Of a stretch of 38,466 nt of DNA, positions 1-38,466 are shown in pieces. Position numbers and translations under genes: made by a program. The notes under the pieces are model-generated. The model worked only from the letters and a program-made list of their open reading frames with translations, ran no database searches and had not been told where the DNA came from. The DNA comes from a virus, in the IMG/VR virus record IMGVR_UViG_3300045988_129428. One strand, written 5' to 3'. Position 1 is the stretch's first letter, and every line of letters begins with the position of its first letter.

Positions 1-69
1 CAATTTCTTGTAACCCTTGCCTTTTCTATATTACATAATTTAAATTAAGCAATAATTTCAGATACAACA
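1..69. repeat. Terminal direct repeat, left copy (identical to 38398..38466)
   Basis: Read directly: the first 69 nt equal the last 69 nt. The match is cut off by the window edge. Confidence 0.95.
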
Positions 70-182
70 CCTGAACCTACTGTACTAAAAGTATGCAATT
101 TGATTGTTCTTAAAGTTTATAAAAGTATTGATAATTAAGCATTTTGTTTTCATGTTTTTTATAAAGTTTTATAATTATTCAA

Positions 183-210
183 AACTGAGTCGGGAAAAAG
201 TCGGGAAAAT
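183..210 (+). repeat. 28-nt direct repeat AACTGAGTCGGGAAAAAGTCGGGAAAAT, copy 1; candidate att or integrase arm site
   Basis: An exact second copy at 38340..38367 overlaps the integrase stop codon. Each copy holds two tandem AGTCGGGAAAA units 11 nt apart. Confidence 0.8.
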
Positions 211-229
211 CGCTGTAAAAAACTTACAT

Positions 230-451
230 TTATTTTTTATCAAGCAATCCTAATAAATAAATTCTAGAAAACACTTCAACATTATCTAAAATCATTTTTG
301 TTTCTTCCTCACTAAATAATTTTTCATTTAATTTTACTCTGTTTTTTATTATTTCTGTTATTTCCATATTCTTTCTCCATTCTTCAAAATGGAAACGCGT
401 TTCTTTTTCTATTTGATTAAATTGTATCACAAATTTCTGAGTTGTCAACAA
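230..451 (-). CDS. Hypothetical small protein
   Basis: 73-codon ORF whose track start is TTG with no clear RBS. An internal ATG at 367 preceded by GGAGA would give 45 aa. No recognisable motif. Confidence 0.3.
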   Translation of the reverse strand: MLTTQKFVIQFNQIEKETRFHFEEWRKNMEITEIIKNRVKLNEKLFSEEETKMILDNVEVFSRIYLLGLLDKK

Positions 452-456
452 AAATA

Positions 457-504
457 TTTCGACAAAATGCAGTGATTCCAGGCTTTTTAGAGTATTTGTC
501 GAAA
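457..504. promoter_or_regulatory. Inverted pair of TTTGTCGAAA boxes (457..466 reverse, 495..504 forward) in a divergent intergenic region
   Basis: Read directly. The same TGTCGAA core recurs at 1167..1184. CG-containing motifs are rare in this AT-rich DNA. Confidence 0.5.
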
Positions 505-619
505 AATAAGTGTGCTTGTATTAGGCATTTCAAGTTTTAAATAGTTCGCTGGGAGCGAAGAATAGAATTTTATAAATAATTATAATAAAATTTGAGCATA
601 ATAACTTTAGAGGTAATTT

Positions 620-943
620 ATGTTTGTTTTTATTATAAAAAATGTTAGAGAATCTAAAAATATAACTTTATATAGATTAATGAAATTAACTGGTCTTTCT
701 TATTCTTATCTTTCTGAATTAGAAAATAACAAGGTATTTAATCCCAGTTTAAAAACTATGTACACAATTGCCACTGCTCTTGATGTCAAAGTAGATGATT
801 TATTTTATAGTGAATTAGATTTGAAAAAGCTACGTGCAGAAATGCACAATAGAATTGAGATTTTTGGACTAGATTCAAAAGAAGTTCTTGAAGTTAGTCA
901 AATTATAGATCTACTTATAAATGTCAAAATGAAAGAGAGCTAA
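620..943 (+). CDS. XRE/SinR-like HTH regulator with Spo0E-like C-terminal domain
   Basis: RBS AGAGGT lies upstream of the ATG. The N-terminal LSYSYLSELENNKVFNPSLKTMYTIATALDV resembles the SinR HTH (SYLSSIERN..NPS). The C-terminal LKKLRAEMHNRIEIFGLDSKEVLEVSQIIDLLIN matches the Spo0E-family helical hairpin (SQELDxLI signature). Confidence 0.8.
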   Translation: MFVFIIKNVRESKNITLYRLMKLTGLSYSYLSELENNKVFNPSLKTMYTIATALDVKVDDLFYSELDLKKLRAEMHNRIEIFGLDSKEVLEVSQIIDLLINVKMKES

Positions 944-959
944 CTAAATATTAGCTCTC
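935..959. terminator. Hairpin between convergent genes (GAGAGCTAA-7 nt-TTAGCTCTC)
   Basis: Perfect 9-bp inverted repeat spanning both stop codons. There is no strong U tract on either side. Confidence 0.4.
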
Positions 960-1120
960 ACTTCTTTGCAGAGTTCGTTAAAATTTTTATTGCTTATATA
1001 TCGTAAACTTTCAGCAGTCAATACGTTATTTTTAATTGCATACTTGTCCCATTCTTTTTTGCTTAATATCTTTGGTAATTCTCTCATCTTTCGTAGTGAT
1101 TTTTGATACATTCTTTTCAT
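944..1120 (-). CDS. Hypothetical small protein
   Basis: The ATG at 1120 is preceded by GGGAG; the track start at 1129 is GTG. 58 aa, basic, no recognisable motif. Confidence 0.45.
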   Translation of the reverse strand: MKRMYQKSLRKMRELPKILSKKEWDKYAIKNNVLTAESLRYISNKNFNELCKEVRANI

Positions 1121-1166
1121 CTTAATCACTCCCTTAATTTATTATAGCACATTTAGCAAAATATTT

Positions 1167-1184
1167 GTGTCGAAGCTTGTCGAA
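1167..1184 (+). promoter_or_regulatory. Two direct TGTCGAA boxes (GTGTCGAA, CTTGTCGAA)
   Basis: Read directly in the second divergent intergenic region. Same core as 457..504. Confidence 0.45.
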
Positions 1185-1328
1185 CGAAAAATTGCGTAAA
1201 ATCAAGGAAAAATCGACGCTCCAGAATCGATTTTAAGGCGTTTTTATTTCTTAGACAACAAGTTATATGGCTCAAAAAAAGAGTCGAAAAAGTCTTTTTT
1301 TAATTTTTAAACTTTTTTTCAAAAAGTA

Positions 1329-1357
1329 TTGACAAGTCGTAACGACTTTGTTATAAT
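1329..1357 (+). promoter_or_regulatory. Consensus sigma-A-type promoter with a palindromic operator in the spacer
   Basis: TTGACA (1329..1334), 17-nt spacer, TATAAT (1352..1357). The spacer contains the palindrome AGTCGT-A-ACGACT (1335..1347). Confidence 0.7.
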
Positions 1358-1389
1358 ATAATCAAGTTAAGCGAAAGGGGAATCTTAGG

Positions 1390-1605
1390 ATGGAAAAATT
1401 TATAGAAAAAGAAACTGAAAAAGCATATTTAGTGAATGTTAAGGTTGAAAATGTAATTTTAGATAAAGAAAAAATTATCAAAGTCTGGATTCCCAAAAGT
1501 GCAATTACCATAAAAGGACATGAAATTCGTATTGCGTCATGGATAATTCAAAAAAATATAATAAGACAAGATGGAGATACTTTCAAGGGTTTTGTTATCG
1601 CATAG
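1390..1605 (+). CDS. Hypothetical small protein
   Basis: ATG preceded by AAAGGGG. First gene downstream of the consensus promoter. 71 aa. Confidence 0.6.
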   Translation: MEKFIEKETEKAYLVNVKVENVILDKEKIIKVWIPKSAITIKGHEIRIASWIIQKNIIRQDGDTFKGFVIA

Positions 1606-1616
1606 GAGGTTAAAAA

Positions 1617-2078
1617 ATGGAAAAAAGAAAAGCAAATATAATTTTTAACAAAAATGGTCAAGGTTTTACTACAATAAAAATCACATTACCAGTAGGCTGG
1701 ATTAGAGAGATGGGCTTCACAGAAAATGATAAAAAAGCTGTTATAGAGTTTAAAGATAAAGAAATTAAAATTAAAAAGGAGATAAAAGAAATGAATAGAT
1801 TTGAAATTATTGAAAAAATGTTTGAAAAACTTAATATTATTGTAGATGGTAGAGAAATTTGGAATTTAATTGAAAATGATATAAATTCAAATGGAAAAAT
1901 GGACGGAGTTCATTCTATTGAGTTGGGAAAATTGGGTGATAATAGAGATTTATGTTTTGCAGAAGTTGAAATTAAAATGAATTATTCAGAAGAAGATGAT
2001 ACTTATGTTACTGATATAGAGATTCTATCTATTAGTAATAGCAAAGAAGTTATTTATCCCGAAGATATTGAAGTGTAA
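1617..2078 (+). CDS. AbrB/SpoVT-like (looped-hinge) DNA-binding domain protein with an unknown C-terminal domain
   Basis: RBS AGGAGG. The N-terminal TTIKITLPVGWIREMGFTENDKKAVIEFKDKEIKIKK fits the SpoVT-AbrB pattern (v.iPk.ir..lg...gd.v.i....i.i). Confidence 0.65.
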   Translation: MEKRKANIIFNKNGQGFTTIKITLPVGWIREMGFTENDKKAVIEFKDKEIKIKKEIKEMNRFEIIEKMFEKLNIIVDGREIWNLIENDINSNGKMDGVHSIELGKLGDNRDLCFAEVEIKMNYSEEDDTYVTDIEILSISNSKEVIYPEDIEV

Positions 2079-2184
2079 GTGAATAATTAAGTAAAATAAG
2101 CTAGGCATTATTTTCCCAAAAATCCTTGATAATATTATATAAAGTATGTTATTATATAATATATAAATTAAAAAGGGGCAATAT

Positions 2185-3129
2185 ATGAAAGAAAGTAAAA
2201 ATGAAAATAATTTACCGATGAACTGGCTTAATTTTTGGAAATATTTCAGATTTCCCGTTTCGTTAATATTATCATTTATGAATATTTCTTCGGTTATTTA
2301 TTTAATAAATTTAAATAATGCTACAGTTTCCGCTAAAACGTTAATTGCAATACTTATAGATATTTTAATTTTGATTTTTATATCTGTAACTTATGCTTTT
2401 TTCTTGGCTCGTAAATCTATATCGTACAAGATATTTATTTGTTACTTAATTATAATAGAATTGATTTCGACTCCAATTTTAAATATAGTAACTAAATATT
2501 TATATATTGGCTTTCCTACACTTCCAGAACTTATTACTGAATGCGCTTTTACTGTAGTTATATGGGGACTTGTATGGATATTGCCTAATTATATATATTT
2601 CAGTAAACGTGAAAAATATTTTGATAAAAAAAATGATGAATTAGATTTAGATGTTGATAAAATCAAAAAACAAGAGGAAACTGCTGATGCAAAAAGCGAA
2701 GAAGTCCAAAAGCACACTTTTCCTACTTCAATAGAATTTATTCATGAAAACACAAAAAATTTAAAGATAAACAATAAGTTTATAACATGTTTAATACTTA
2801 TAATTGTTGAAACAATAGCAATTTTAATACTTGGAATATTTCTTTTTAAAGAAAAGAGTACTGCTGATAATCAAATGGCTAAAATAATTTCTCTTAATTC
2901 AGAAATAAAGGAACAACGTAGTTCTGCTAGTTTATATAAAACATTGTATAATGAGCAAGAAGATAAGGTAAAATTCATGGACGACCATGTTGTAATTGTA
3001 CCAGAATATACTAATATTTATCACAAATATGAATGTCAATACCTTGACTTAACAAATGGAGGATATATATTTAATCCTGAAAATGCTGAAGCTCAAGGAT
3101 ATAAGGCTTGTAAACATTGTAATAAGTAA
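2185..3129 (+). CDS. Multi-pass membrane protein with a cytoplasmic coiled-coil and a C-terminal Cys/His motif
   Basis: RBS AAGGGG. Several hydrophobic helices lie in the first ~150 aa and another near aa 200-225. The C-terminus is IYHKYECQYL...GYKACKHCNK. Confidence 0.7.
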   Translation: MKESKNENNLPMNWLNFWKYFRFPVSLILSFMNISSVIYLINLNNATVSAKTLIAILIDILILIFISVTYAFFLARKSISYKIFICYLIIIELISTPILNIVTKYLYIGFPTLPELITECAFTVVIWGLVWILPNYIYFSKREKYFDKKNDELDLDVDKIKKQEETADAKSEEVQKHTFPTSIEFIHENTKNLKINNKFITCLILIIVETIAILILGIFLFKEKSTADNQMAKIISLNSEIKEQRSSASLYKTLYNEQEDKVKFMDDHVVIVPEYTNIYHKYECQYLDLTNGGYIFNPENAEAQGYKACKHCNK

Positions 3130-3139
3130 ATAATATATT

Positions 3140-3171
3140 AGAACCCAGGCTAAATAAATAGTCTAGGTTCT
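3140..3171. terminator. Bidirectional terminator hairpin between convergent genes
   Basis: AGAACCCAGGCT-8 nt-AGTCTAGGTTCT (imperfect), followed by TTTTAGTTTTT on the plus strand. Confidence 0.55.
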
Positions 3172-3179
3172 TTTAGTTT

Positions 3180-6100
3180 TTAATAATCATATGAACCATC
3201 TGGAAATTCTTTATCTGGTTTATTAAGTGTTACCCCTGCAAATTTACTCATAATTTCTAGTTTTTCTTTTACTGTCCTGTTTGGCATATTTCTTACATAA
3301 TTTTCTACTATTTCTCTATCTGAAGCATTTCTTGGTCTATATTCTAATGCATATAAAATAAGTTTTTGAGTGTATGTAGCTCCTTTTATTGAGTAAATAT
3401 AATCAAATACTTTGTCTTTTTTGCTTCCTGTTATCGACTTTCCATTAACTGTTCCATCGTCTTTCTTATCTGCTTTAAATTCTTGTGCTTTATATTGTAA
3501 GTACTTACTCATATTTAAGCCCGAGCCTGTAAAAGATTCTTTAACTATATCATATTTTGTATCCTTTTTTCCTAGCGAATTTTCATATATTGCCTTTTTA
3601 GTTTTTTCATCATATTTACTATTGGCAAGAACCTCTAATTTTTCTGAATCTTTGTCTAATCCTTGTGTGTTAGCTAAAAATTCAAAATAATTGCTAGTAT
3701 TGCCACCGGTTTTTTTAATAGCATTGGTTACTTGTGATAATGTACTCTGTTCATTCTTTAAACAATTTTGTCTGGCATAATCAATTTTTACTTGTTCTGT
3801 ACTATAACTATATATTTTTTCTATTGCTAATTGCTTTTGAGAATCGGACAATTTTTTATATCCATCGGAATTTATTAAATTCTTTAATAATTCATATGAA
3901 GTTTCTCCAAATTGTTTTTTATATTTAGCAAATTCTTTTGATGTCATAACATATTTCTTTTTATCTATTGTCAGATTCTTGTTTATAGTATCAGGGAATA
4001 CTGAACTTTCTCCAGTATTCTCATACACCTTAGTAATCTCTTTGTCTACATTGTTTGAATTTAATTCTTTTCTTGCCCATGGAAATACTGCATTTTCCAA
4101 TGCTCTTAAAGCAATGTTATCTGATTGTTTCTGTTCTTGTCCCCATATATCTGTTTTTATTGGAAGTTTTTGTCTTAATCCTGGAATTTTATTCATTATT
4201 TGAGTTCTTGTTGTATCTATTGCTTTTGGTAATACACCTGTTTTTGTCGAAGTAGTATTTCTTTCATATTCATCAGTTGTTTTAGCAATTTGACCTAAAG
4301 CTGTTGGTATAAATTGATTTACGTATGATTTAATTGAATTTGTTCCTATACCAGCCAACATTTTTGAACTTCCTTGATCATAGCTTTTAAGTGCAGATGT
4401 CAAACCACTAAGCATAGACATTTCAGTCATTGGGTTCATTGCATTACTAAATGAATCTAAGATGTTCATTGATGCGTCAACTACTTTGTTATAGTATTCA
4501 TCCTCATCACTAGAAGATGTTTTCTTTTCTTTTTGAGTTTTCATTAATTCATAACATTCTGCTCCTATAAATAACGGAATGCCTGATGGAGCAAGCCAAT
4601 CTAATGAGTATGTATTGTTTCCAATTGTTATTGCATAGTTTTGACTGCCTCTTCCTTCTTCAAATTTTTCCTTGTCTTCATCATCGCTTCCAGTTGCCTT
4701 TAAGACTCCACAGTTTGCAAGAGCATATCCCACTAATGCTATTCCTGTTCCTGTTAATCCTTTAGAAATGTTGTCTATATATTTATTAGCTGTAATATTG
4801 CCTTTTCTTAGTTGAACTGTATCATATACTGCACTTTTTACTAAACCAACTGGGCTATATTCTAGTCCAGCTTTTGCGACATTTATAGGTGTTTTTTTGA
4901 ATGGCAATGTAGCATCTAATACAAACTTTGAGAATTTGTTCTTATTAGATAATTGATTTATCAACGAAGCTAATTGACTGTCTTGATGAAATGTAGCTTC
5001 TTTCGCTTGTTCAATAGCAAAATTTCTTGCTTTTCCTAGCTGTTGGTCTGTTATAGTGTCTGGAGTTAATTTGTTTGCAGTCATATATTCTGATAGAGCT
5101 TTCACATAGCCTGCTTTTAATCCCCAACCATCTTCCGCTTCTAGTGCTTTATTATTTAAGTCAAACGCTTTTCCAATTGTATTTTCCATTGCATCGCTTT
5201 TAAATGTACGCATATTATTTTCTAGTCTAGTTTTGGGATTATATTTATTTTCATTCAAACCTAGTCTGTCAACAACATTTTCTATATCTGCCTTAGCAAA
5301 TGCTTTTACTTCTTTGCTAGCTGGAATTACGGTATGATTTCTTTCCATGTCTGGATTTATTTTACTTACCGCACTTTCTATTCCTCCTGCAACTTTATTC
5401 TTTATTCCTTGTACTCCCCCCATTGCTGTATTTCCTACAATGTTTCTTATATGGGTTCTAGGATTAGCCAACATTGAGAAATATCTCCAGGCATCAATTT
5501 TTTGTGCCGTTGTTTTTGTTAATTGTTGTCCTAACTCTTTATATACTTCATTTAAGTTTTGTTCTAGTACTTTAGCGTTTTCAGAATTAGTAATTTTGTT
5601 TAGCATTTCTGGTGTCAATTTAAATTGTTCCGCATCTTCTCCTCTTGTTCTTTTTAAGTCTTTGTTCATTTTGTCTACTGACCTTTGCAACCACACTGCT
5701 TGACCTTCTGGAGTTTGATGATTCAATAAAGACATTGCTTGTACTGTTTGACCTGCTGTTGTTCCTGCCATTGCTGTTGCTTGAATGGCATCTTGCAATT
5801 TTGATTTATTACCAGTTTTAGAATAATATTGTATTAACCTTTCTCCTATTGCTATGTCTTCAGCCTTTATAGTACCTCCAGTAGTTGCTCTTGATAGTAA
5901 AGACGATAATTCACTATCAGCTCCAGTTGTTGATATTCTGTCATCAGCTAATTCTAATTGTTTTGAGTTGGATTCTGGAACATAAGTATCAGTTCCCATT
6001 AAACTTTTAGCAATTGCCTTTGCTTCATCAGTTGTATAGTTACTTTTTATTATTGACTCATAATGCTTTCTTCTTTTTTCGCCCTCTTTCTTCTGTTTAG

Positions 6101-35083: not shown

Positions 35084-35191
35084 ACAAGTTTTTCTTGTTG
35101 TTGCGATTATATTATCACAAGTAAAACTTGTTGTCAATAGTTTTTTACAATTTTTTCTTGTTTTTTATTTACTTATACAAATTTAGCTTGT
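35084..35191. promoter_or_regulatory. Genetic switch region: four ACAAn-N5-CTTGT operators and divergent promoters
   Basis: Operators at 35084..35098, 35117..35131, 35147..35161 and 35177..35191. Leftward promoter TTGACA (35137..35132), 17 nt, TAATAT (35114..35109), with an operator filling the spacer. Rightward promoter TTTACT (35168..35173), 17 nt, TATAAT (35191..35196). Confidence 0.75.
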
Positions 35192-35214
35192 ATAATATTG
35201 TTAGAGGTGTTGAT

Positions 35215-35553
35215 ATGAATAGGATTAGACAATTAAGAGAAGAATTTAAAATTTCTCAAACTGAATTGGGAAAAAAATTAAATAAGACACAACAACAAAT
35301 AAGTTTATATGAAAATGGAACAAATGAATTAGATTTAGATGGTTATATAATTTTATCAGAGTTATTTGGTTGCTGTATTGAATATATAGCTGGTAAATCC
35401 GACATAAGAAACCCACAGCAATCTGACCCACTTGGCCTTGCTAAGGTGGGCTTTAGTATGGACAAATATGTTCCTCCAACAGACGTACAAAGAGAGCAGA
35501 TAAAAGGATTGCTTGAAGTGATATTAAAGGATAATAAGAAGGAGGAAAAATAA
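35215..35553 (+). CDS. cI/ImmR-like XRE-family repressor (no S24 peptidase domain)
   Basis: The ATG at 35215 follows AGAGGTG. The track start at 35128 is a hydrophobic upstream extension across the operators. FKISQTELGKKLNKTQQQISLYENG HTH. Confidence 0.85.
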   Translation: MNRIRQLREEFKISQTELGKKLNKTQQQISLYENGTNELDLDGYIILSELFGCCIEYIAGKSDIRNPQQSDPLGLAKVGFSMDKYVPPTDVQREQIKGLLEVILKDNKKEEK

Positions 35554-37195: not shown

Positions 37196-37223
37196 TGTTT
37201 CTTTTTTTAGAAAGGATTTGAAT

Positions 37224-38345
37224 ATGGCAAAGAAAACTAATTATTCTAAAAATGGCAAAAATTATTATAGAATCACAAAAACTATAAGTAAAAAACCTGA
37301 CGGCACTTCAATAAAAAAAGAATTTTACGGTTCCTGCAAAGCGGAAGCTGAAGAAAAAGCAACTAAATATATTAATGATTTAAAGTTAGGATTAATCGAA
37401 AAAGATAAAAAGTATACTATAAATATATTGTTGCCACTATGGTTATATGGAACCAAGAGAAACACAGTTAAAGCATCTACTTTAGACAGCTATGATGGTA
37501 TATACAAAAAATATATTAAGCCTAATGTAATCTCAAATATTCCAATTAATGATATAAAAACTTTAAAAATACAAGAATATTATAATAATTTAGATACAAC
37601 TGCTAGTAATGTTAAAAAGGTTCATAAACTACTTTACCAATTTTTCAATTATTCTGAAAAAGAAGGCTATATAGTTAAAAATCCTTGCAATAACGTTTCT
37701 CTTCCCAAAGAGAAAAAAACAACATTAGAAGTTTTAAAAAATAAATCTAAATTTCAATATTATAGTGAAGATGAAATAAAAAGGTTAAAGGAAGTTTTTA
37801 AAGATAATAAATTCAAAAATGTAGTTTTATTCGCTCTTGGAACAGGTATGCGAAGAGGAGAAATATTTGGACTGCAATGGTCTGACATTGACTTTGAAAA
37901 AAAAGAAATACATGTTATACACAATTTAACATATATGGCAACAAACATCACCGAGACTTCTAAAACTTATCATTTAACACTACAAACTCCAAAAACTGAA
38001 AACTCAATCAGGACTATACCTATGTCAGACAGTATTTATAAACTATTAAAATCAATTTATGACATAAATTCAACTTATGTGTTTTCTCCTAACGACGGGC
38101 ATTTTGATATAAAATATTTTGAAAAAGTTTATAAGAAAAAATTAAAAGAAGCGCATATCGAAAATAAGAACTTTCACGACTTAAGACACACATTTGCAAC
38201 TATGTTATTGGCAAATGGAGCAGATCTTATAACGGTTAAAGAGTTGCTTGGTCATAGTTCAATAAAAACAACAGAAATATATTTAGAAGCATTACCTAAA
38301 ACCAAAGAAGATGTTGTCAATAAAATCAATTTTATTTGTAACTGA
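37224..38345 (+). CDS. int: Tyrosine recombinase (phage integrase)
   Basis: The ATG at 37224 is 7 nt after AAAGGA; the track start at 37218 is [34 protein letters not shown] catalytic signatures. Confidence 0.9.
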
Positions 38346-38367
38346 GTCGGGAAAAAGTCGGGAAAAT
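38340..38367 (+). repeat. 28-nt direct repeat, copy 2 (overlaps the int stop codon)
   Basis: Identical to 183..210. Confidence 0.8.
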
Positions 38368-38386: not shown

Positions 38387-38423
38387 GCAAGGTTTTACAA
38401 TTTCTTGTAACCCTTGCCTTTTC
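38387..38423 (+). terminator. Terminator hairpin after int
   Basis: GCAAGGttTTACAA-tttc-TTGTAAcCCTTGC, followed by CTTTTC. Its right half is also the start of the window (terminal repeat). Confidence 0.65.
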
Positions 38424-38466
38424 TATATTACATAATTTAAATTAAGCAATAATTTCAGATACAACA
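38398..38466. repeat. Terminal direct repeat, right copy
   Basis: Identical to 1..69. Confidence 0.95.

Follow-up and report, generated by a model that had tools for sequence, protein, structure and literature searches.

We analysed a 38,466-nucleotide (nt) stretch of viral DNA (IMG/VR record IMGVR_UViG_3300045988_129428, hereafter the window) and focused on a short gene near its start, the fusion gene, whose 107-amino-acid (aa) product joins an XRE-type helix-turn-helix (HTH) to a Spo0E-like tail and which lies behind perfect copies of TGTCGAA, the 0A box recognised by Spo0A. Because the first 69 bases of the window (1-69) recur as an exact direct repeat in its last 69 (38398-38466), the window is probably a complete, circularly assembled temperate-phage genome of about 38.4 kb and 29.9% GC. 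A first-pass annotation, made from the letters alone, had placed the gene in a phage accessory island. Its position on the circle agrees with that: it sits between the region of the phage attachment site (attP) and integrase and the end of the late operon, on the strand opposite to that operon, and in integrated copies it is always the outermost phage gene, beside host DNA. The gene and its surroundings thus form a mobile accessory cassette at the prophage edge. Coordinates are collected in Table 1.

The two peptides from which that annotation had deduced a fused architecture, SYSYLSELENNKVFNPS and DLKKLRAEMHNRIEIFGLDSKEVLEVSQIIDLLIN, are both present in the translation of 620..943, and profile searches recover both domains. 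Pfam's SpoOE-like family, PF09388, matches residues 68-102 of the full protein with 32.2 bits (E 1.1e-7); the C-terminal half by itself scores 34.9 bits against a gathering cut-off of 23 bits, well clear of background. The Ser-Gln-x-x-Asp signature that had been ascribed to the tail is present as S93, Q94 and D97. Homologues fall into 392 clusters; 120 were listed, and the Pfam pair, PF09388 included, is annotated on 118 of them. The databases name them only as XRE-family regulators. An AlphaFold2 (AF2) model built from a 20-sequence alignment (predicted local distance difference test score, pLDDT, 80) shows a five-helix HTH (residues 6-61) followed by a hairpin of two helices (65-82 and 87-103) with its turn at G83.

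Several comparisons bear on where the tail comes from. Searched against 177,635 PDB sequences, a profile of 16 C-terminal halves placed 2c0s and 2bzb, the two Bacillus anthracis Spo0E-like proteins of solved structure, first and second, both in register. Aligned with hhalign to an approximate Bacillus subtilis Spo0E sequence, the same profile gave E 0.0023 over 36 columns, and the turn glycine and the SQxxDxxIN motif line up. Against SinR, hhalign aligned nothing in the SinR C-domain (E 0.4), and the SinI domain (PF08671) had no Pfam match in the fusion protein at E up to 10. As a single sequence, the C-terminal half matched nothing in the PDB; among 1.84 billion representative sequences it found only 24 matches, some of fused length (about 107-110 aa), the others shorter or with a different head. 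None of these is evidently a canonical Spo0E, so at that sensitivity there is no bridge to canonical Spo0E. Short database proteins that resemble a stand-alone C-domain were rejected, as their starts coincide with Met codons inside the HTH, which suggests truncation. By these sequence comparisons, the tail is homologous to Spo0E and not to the SinI/SinR hook.

The HTH had been called SinR-like. For the AF2 model, Foldseek ranks full-length SinR (1b0n_A) first in the PDB, over 106 columns at 27% identity, and the SinR N-domain is among the top PDB sequence matches in phmmer (E 1.2e-5). The label is therefore fair for the architecture, a SinR-like layout with a Spo0E-like tail. What did not carry over is the biological role of SinR, to which the protein is only weakly linked: its HTH is a generic XRE domain with 27-38% identity to SinR, its recognition helix is variable, and it has no SinI/SinR hook.

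The published 0A box has the consensus TGTCGAA with A/T flanks and is a shared recognition sequence of the Spo0A proteins of Bacillus subtilis and Clostridioides difficile (PMC3485338, PMC7643835, PMC2731898). The boxes cited in the first-pass annotation proved real: the window holds seven copies against 1.6 expected, a number reached in none of 100 shuffles, and four of the seven fall within 730 bp around the fusion gene. They occur only within accessory cassettes located at the prophage end, and the immunity and early region has none. Each of the 17 genome and metagenome relatives shows two or three perfect boxes in the corresponding position. IMG/VR yielded 76 loci (44-96% identity); where 200 bp or more of upstream sequence was available, which holds for 68 IMG/VR relatives, the 260 bp before the gene never lacked a perfect box, and 54 of the 68 showed two or more. 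Over 92 non-redundant loci, box density is 7.63/kb in the 260 bp upstream and 0.199/kb elsewhere, a 38-fold difference, and 37 boxes yield the extended consensus ttTGTCGAAaa.

These boxes are set in a divergent promoter region that is conserved in all relatives examined. The -35 hexamer of the leftward promoter reads TGTCAA on the plus strand and is itself a near-0A box. In distant clades the core of the region is TGTCGAA-aaa-TGTCAA-N9-TTCGACA-aaa-palindrome, where perfect and near-perfect tandem boxes 3 bp apart overlap the -35 of the leftward promoter and a third box sits 13-15 bp from the centre of the palindrome; tandem boxes with this same 3-bp spacing are occupied by a Spo0A dimer in phages Nf and phi29 (PMC2731898). 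Toward the fusion gene, a consensus scan found no good sigma-A promoter within 504-619. The TATAAT that is likely its -10 is followed by a ribosome-binding site and then the ATG, and a TAtAaT-like element is retained at this position in relatives. The perfect tandem boxes upstream of the 61-aa gene are kept in at least nine relatives, wherever that gene occurs. The promoter of the 61-aa gene is likely TGcTATAAT with a box-overlapped, TCGACA -35-like element 21 nt upstream, an arrangement that recalls the spoIIG promoter, which is over-spaced and Spo0A-activated.

Relatives come from human-gut metagenomes and from metagenome-assembled genomes labelled uncultured Clostridia or Clostridium, with about 29% GC. 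In one host flank (L118), genes for an alpha/beta-type small acid-soluble spore protein (SASP; PF00269, 29.1 bits, cut-off 22), a SleB-type hydrolase (127 bits) and YpeB (YPEB_N 137 bits, YPEB_PepSY1-2 150 bits) lie 6-8 kb from the prophage end; SASP, sleB and ypeB are genes of endospore formers. Endospore formers all use Spo0A (PMC11115286). The suggested tie to the Spo0A network is thus strengthened, by perfect 0A boxes upstream in all relatives examined, a tandem site nearby and spore genes in one host flank.

A second element upstream of the fusion gene follows different rules. In the window it is the palindrome TAGTTCGCTgggAGCGAA. Most relatives likewise have a palindrome at a constant position (-75 to -81 relative to the ATG), and the palindrome arms covary with the class of recognition helix, recurring in independent loci with one exception (L054). 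The window clade pairs the helix SYSYLSE with the arm TTCGCT; SRAYL(F/Y)D goes with TGACGCT (four loci), SRTYLRx with ATATGGAACT (five loci) and NRxYLxQ with TGTTGCT (four loci), and, with loci not counted, SRSYxSE goes with TGTCGCT or TCGCT and SKPYLIL with GTAACTG. Since the palindrome changes with the recognition helix, it is probably the fusion protein's own operator, which would give autoregulation. The same tracking favours an operator over an RNA hairpin. A role as general phage operator was rejected, as the palindrome occurs once in the window. The family thereby offers a natural series of recognition-helix/operator pairs for XRE specificity studies.

Taken together, the domain, the boxes and the operator suggest an autoregulated lysogeny cassette that is wired to Spo0A and whose tail is predicted to act on Spo0A~P, a reading to which we lean but grant slightly less than an even chance. 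The fusion protein would bind the palindrome as a dimer, with the hairpin as the interface as in SinR, and regulate its own promoter. Host Spo0A~P would bind the invariant boxes, so that both divergent promoters would respond to stationary phase or sporulation entry. The polar face of helix 2 (S86, E88, E91, S93, Q94, D97, N101) would contact the Spo0A receiver and, in the manner of free-standing Spo0E, remove or mask its phosphate; Spo0A~P would consequently be kept low in lysogens, and sporulation would be delayed or blocked. With autoregulation and 0A-box control combined, this would amount to a feedback brake and not a constitutive block. In most clades a box is found 13-15 bp away from the centre of the palindrome, so the fusion protein and Spo0A may meet on DNA. 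It is tempting to go further and picture a DNA-tethered anti-Spo0A~P module, which, seated on its operator beside box-bound Spo0A~P, would dephosphorylate or evict it as a prophage-encoded feedback brake on sporulation initiation; we regard this stronger version as rather unlikely.

The tail can also be read more simply, as a hairpin recruited purely for dimerisation in a protein that is a transcription factor only: it would autoregulate, perhaps control cargo or host genes, and receive Spo0A~P input via the boxes with no action back. We consider this possible but doubtful. It accommodates the finding that full-length SinR is the best structural match, the need of a short XRE HTH for a dimerisation domain, the dimer implied by an operator-like palindrome, and the very hydrophobic helix 2; Spo0E-like proteins also occur in non-sporulating bacteria, where their roles may be diverse (PMC11115286). 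A pure interface could drift, yet helix 2 of the hairpin, SKEVLEVSQIIDLLIN (residues 86-101), is the most conserved stretch of the protein among the 189 distinct full-length sequences collected altogether, with a mean column entropy of 0.44 against about 0.9 for each whole domain. Its polar residues S86, E88, E91, S93, D97 and N101 are essentially invariant while the residues that set HTH specificity are free. SxxxD is the Spo0E family signature and its Asp is critical for Spo0E function; in a Clostridioides difficile model, both Spo0E helices touch the Spo0A receiver (PMC11115286). Exposed polar residues that stay invariant as DNA specificity drifts fit an external partner better than self-association alone. 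The exact SQxxDxLIN signature is retained, and under this simpler reading it would be left to chance that the domain and the boxes each point, independently, to Spo0A. Effector and dimerisation roles of the hairpin are not mutually exclusive.

A number of observations weigh against an action of the tail on Spo0A~P. All relatives seen retain the SxxxD Ser and Asp, whereas the Gln is not invariant: Q94 is found in 178 of 189 family members, and K, H, R or N takes its place in a few. These conservation counts are partly circular, in that the sequence filter and one IMG/VR search pattern included the motif; homologue sets gathered without motif bias hold no counter-example to SxxxD. The tail is strongly hydrophobic (VLEVSQIIDLLINV), with SQIID in place of SQELD, which fits a dimer interface, and a hairpin after a 65-aa HTH is required for dimerisation in any case. 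The E-values for 2c0s and 2bzb are weak (0.022 and 0.11). The direction of regulation at either promoter is not readable from the sequence.

Further points of this kind concern the host. A tblastn search of the 694 kb of fetched loci with an approximate Spo0A C-domain gave no spo0A match. In L118, ypeB (1744-3121) is split into two open reading frames (ORFs) of 243 and 214 aa, adjoining sleB and the SASP gene, which reflects either an assembly frameshift or decaying sporulation genes. Host contigs reach 1.34 Mb at most. Given the split ypeB and contigs of this size, the host lineage may be small-genomed or losing sporulation.

Another possibility is that the hairpin receives a signal and sends none, following SinR/SinI or repressor/AimX logic: it would dock a small antagonist, which could be a free-standing Spo0E-like protein of the host or a peptide of the phage, and the heterodimer would free the protein from DNA. 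There are precedents in SinI, which inactivates SinR via a helical hook (1b0n), and in the small anti-repressors that bind related phage XRE repressors (9sf2 and 9iaq are among the matches); a small ORF is also always divergent from the fusion gene. That ORF conserves its position and not its sequence. It belongs to at least five unrelated sequence types among relatives, even beside identical fusion proteins, so no partner is matched to the protein; the version in the window has homologues in 14 of 120 fetched loci and no Pfam match or Spo0E similarity. Its product was rejected both as a SinI-like partner and as a box binder because its sequence is not conserved, and the cassette is without a conserved candidate antagonist. 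We think antagonist docking very unlikely. In L001-L017 the slot divergent from the fusion gene is always filled by an ORF of 42-51 aa behind the same promoter and leader, much like a swappable cargo slot.

That the boxes are not Spo0A sites at all, and that another conserved factor, the integrase at its arm-type sites or the fusion protein itself binds them while the Spo0E similarity is unlinked to sporulation, has little probability in our judgement: the cassette is near attP and TTCG is common to the boxes and the window-clade palindrome (TTCGCT), but the boxes are identical across integrases of 28% identity (window and L003), different phage backbones and different integration sites, keep a distance of about 280 bp or more to the prophage junction, with attP flanked by a separate repeat, GTCGGGAAAA, stay invariant while the recognition helix takes more than 20 variants, and equal the published 0A box in 7-mer, A/T flanks and 3-bp tandem spacing (PMC3485338, PMC2731898). 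The fusion protein and integrase arm-type sites were rejected on these grounds. The fusion protein, the integrase and the small ORF product all vary among relatives and the boxes do not, from which we infer that the boxes belong to an invariant host factor, for which Spo0A is the obvious candidate.

Table 1. Positions of the fusion gene, its control region and other features of the window.
Feature	Position	Strand	Remarks
27-bp repeat ACTGAGTCGGGAAAAAGTCGGGAAAAT	184..210 and 38341-38367	+ (184..210)	two GTCGGGAAAA units per copy; copies 213 bp apart, between integrase stop and cassette
Small divergent ORF, 45 aa	233..367	-	position conserved, sequence not
Perfect 12-bp palindrome GAAACGCGTTTC	392..403		in leader of small divergent ORF
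Divergent promoter TTGACA-16-TACAAT with TG	421..448	-	11/12 matches in promoter scan; precedes small divergent ORF; kept in relatives
Box 1, perfect TGTCGAA	458..464	-	9 nt from -35 hexamer of divergent promoter
Box 2, perfect TGTCGAA	497..503	+	extended TTTGTCGAAAAAT
Palindrome TAGTTCGCTgggAGCGAA	542..565 (core 545-559)		just upstream of TATAAT; candidate operator
TATAAT, likely -10 of fusion gene	581..586	+	read from sequence; without recognisable -35
Fusion gene coding sequence	620..943	+	ORF call; ATG at 620, stop 941-943; 107 aa
HTH, residues 6-63	about 635-808	+	Pfam HTH_26 E 1.2e-11, HTH_3 E 1.2e-10
Spo0E-like hairpin, residues 65-103	about 812-928	+	PF09388 above cut-off; AF2
SxxxD motif, S93-D97	896-910	+	within fusion protein
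Intrinsic-terminator-like hairpin	935..959		bidirectional; overlaps fusion gene stop codon
61-aa gene	944..1129	-	downstream of tandem boxes
Tandem perfect boxes TGTCGAA-gct-TGTCGAA	1168..1184	+	3-bp spacer; upstream of 61-aa gene
Perfect promoter TTGACA-17-TATAAT with TG	1329..1357	+	ahead of 71-aa and 153-aa ORFs (1390..2078)
153-aa neighbour	1617..2078	+	earlier labelled AbrB-like
314-aa predicted membrane protein	2185..3129	+	C-terminus weakly Ada zinc-binding-like (E 8.6e-4, 19.7 bits, below cut-off 23)
Giant MuF_C-type protein, 2291 aa	3180..10055	-	after lysis genes
CI-like repressor	35128..35550		lysogeny module, with ImmA-like protease
Tyrosine integrase	37218..38345	+	phrog_1 E 1e-74; about 350 bp upstream of cassette in circular genome

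The rest of the genome is that of a temperate phage, with early genes and the genes for portal, capsid, tail and endolysins on the minus strand. The ACTGAGTCGGGAAAAAGTCGGGAAAAT repeats are probably attP arm or core elements and better candidates for integrase sites than the boxes; homology with the integrated relative L009 starts at window position 178. A blastn search of window 1-3200 against sequenced phages gave no match. Carriers of the cassette are podovirus-like or siphovirus-like prophages, some with the giant MuF_C protein and others with a tape-measure protein and Dit, and they are integrated at four or more different places, among them an NMT1-type ABC transporter locus, murA/EPSP-synthase, an ABC-F gene and tadA-dnaX-recR. 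The 2291-aa protein is of a polyvalent type typical of some gut phages; relatives carry MuF_C, ParB_N (weak), ART-PolyVal or LPD38 domains.

The slot directly downstream of the fusion gene holds varied cargo in relatives: Fic (L019/L028), PIN_3 with a 53-aa partner (L105-L113) or SocA_Panacea (L002/L116). This toxin-like or defence-like cargo marks the prophage end as an accessory-gene hotspot. In the window, the slot holds four ORFs of its own. The 71-aa and 153-aa ORFs among the features there are likely expressed apart from the late operon, given the perfect promoter ahead of them.

The first-pass annotation had also pointed to the 153-aa neighbour as an AbrB-like gene of the same network, and this claim falls away. 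The protein has no Pfam match at E up to 10, no NCBIfam match and no relevant PDB sequence match, and its 15 homologues show no Pfam domain. Its AF2 model (pLDDT 83) has no significant Foldseek match, with an AbrB model ranking 27th at E 1.1; the order beta, alpha, beta, beta in the N-domain is compatible with an AbrB fold and nothing more. It combines an N-module (residues 1-57, phrog_2329), found elsewhere in front of different C-domains, with a C-module that makes up 95-aa proteins by itself. With no detectable AbrB/SpoVT homology by profile or fold, and accompanying the fusion gene in just 3 of the 120 loci fetched, the neighbour says nothing about the Spo0A network.

Two further elements of the control region deserve mention. 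The palindrome GAAACGCGTTTC in the leader of the small divergent ORF is kept in most related loci even where the ORF behind it differs. It resembles, yet differs from, the Gram-positive LexA box, which is GAAC-N4-GTTC. In nine relatives (L078, L081, L087, L090, L096, L098, L052, L059 and L008), a TTGACA-17-TATATT promoter lies about 130-260 nt upstream of the fusion gene and is followed after about 70 nt, still upstream of the boxes, by a strong hairpin with a T-run (GAGATAG...CTATCTCTTTTTT). This unit looks like a small RNA gene; an Rfam scan of the window alone matched no family.

If the tail does act on Spo0A~P, the cassette would be a compact device by which prophages tune the sporulation of gut Clostridia, and sporulation governs the persistence and transmission of these bacteria. 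Under the stronger version of a DNA-tethered module, with the cassette shuttling among unrelated prophages of abundant human-gut Clostridia, prophage carriage would alter spore formation and, with it, the host-to-host transmission of gut commensals.

It is useful to compare the fusion protein with the systems it resembles. It has the size of SinR and SlrR of Bacillus subtilis and shares their layout of an N-terminal XRE HTH and two C-terminal helices. The sin genes are also wired to Spo0A: in Bacillus subtilis, sinI is Spo0A-activated and SinI antagonises SinR/SlrR. The fusion protein differs in that its C-domain is not homologous to the SinI/SinR hook, it is without a conserved SinI-like partner, its gene is phage-encoded, and its candidate operator is a variable palindrome and not a SinR site. 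In Clostridioides difficile, Spo0A represses the sin locus via a 0A box (PMC7643835).

The closest likeness of the tail is to the Spo0E family of aspartyl-phosphate phosphatases (Bacillus subtilis Spo0E, YisI and YnzD; Bacillus anthracis BA5174 and BA1655; Clostridioides difficile Spo0E). Its 40 residues match PF09388, a two-helix hairpin is predicted, SxxxD / SQxxDxLIN stands at the start of helix 2, and the host lineage has spore genes. Known members, however, are free-standing proteins of 40-100 aa, whereas here the module is the tail of a DNA-binding protein, phage-borne and more hydrophobic.

Spo0E-like modules on temperate phages of spore formers have been seen before. Brevibacillus phages carry free-standing spo0E-like genes (PMC4909266), and other phage spo0E-like genes, adjacent to RRNPP quorum-sensing receptors, have been suggested to hijack sporulation (PMC10075063). 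In those cases the gene is small, separate and under a quorum-sensing receptor, whereas in the window regulator and module form a single polypeptide and the apparent input is Spo0A~P via 0A boxes. Phages phi29 and Nf have their transcription controlled by host Spo0A~P through 0A boxes, perfect and in tandem, that lie at divergent promoters (PMC2731898). The phi29 boxes silence the lytic programme, so that the genome is trapped in the spore; the boxes described here occur only in accessory cassettes.

Our literature search found no published description of an HTH::Spo0E fusion. The published survey of Spo0E orthologues covered proteins of 40-100 aa only (PMC11115286), so a 107-aa fusion would have been missed. 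Within the literature searched, a single phage polypeptide that combines a DNA-binding head with a Spo0E module behind invariant 0A boxes is new, while its parts are each known.

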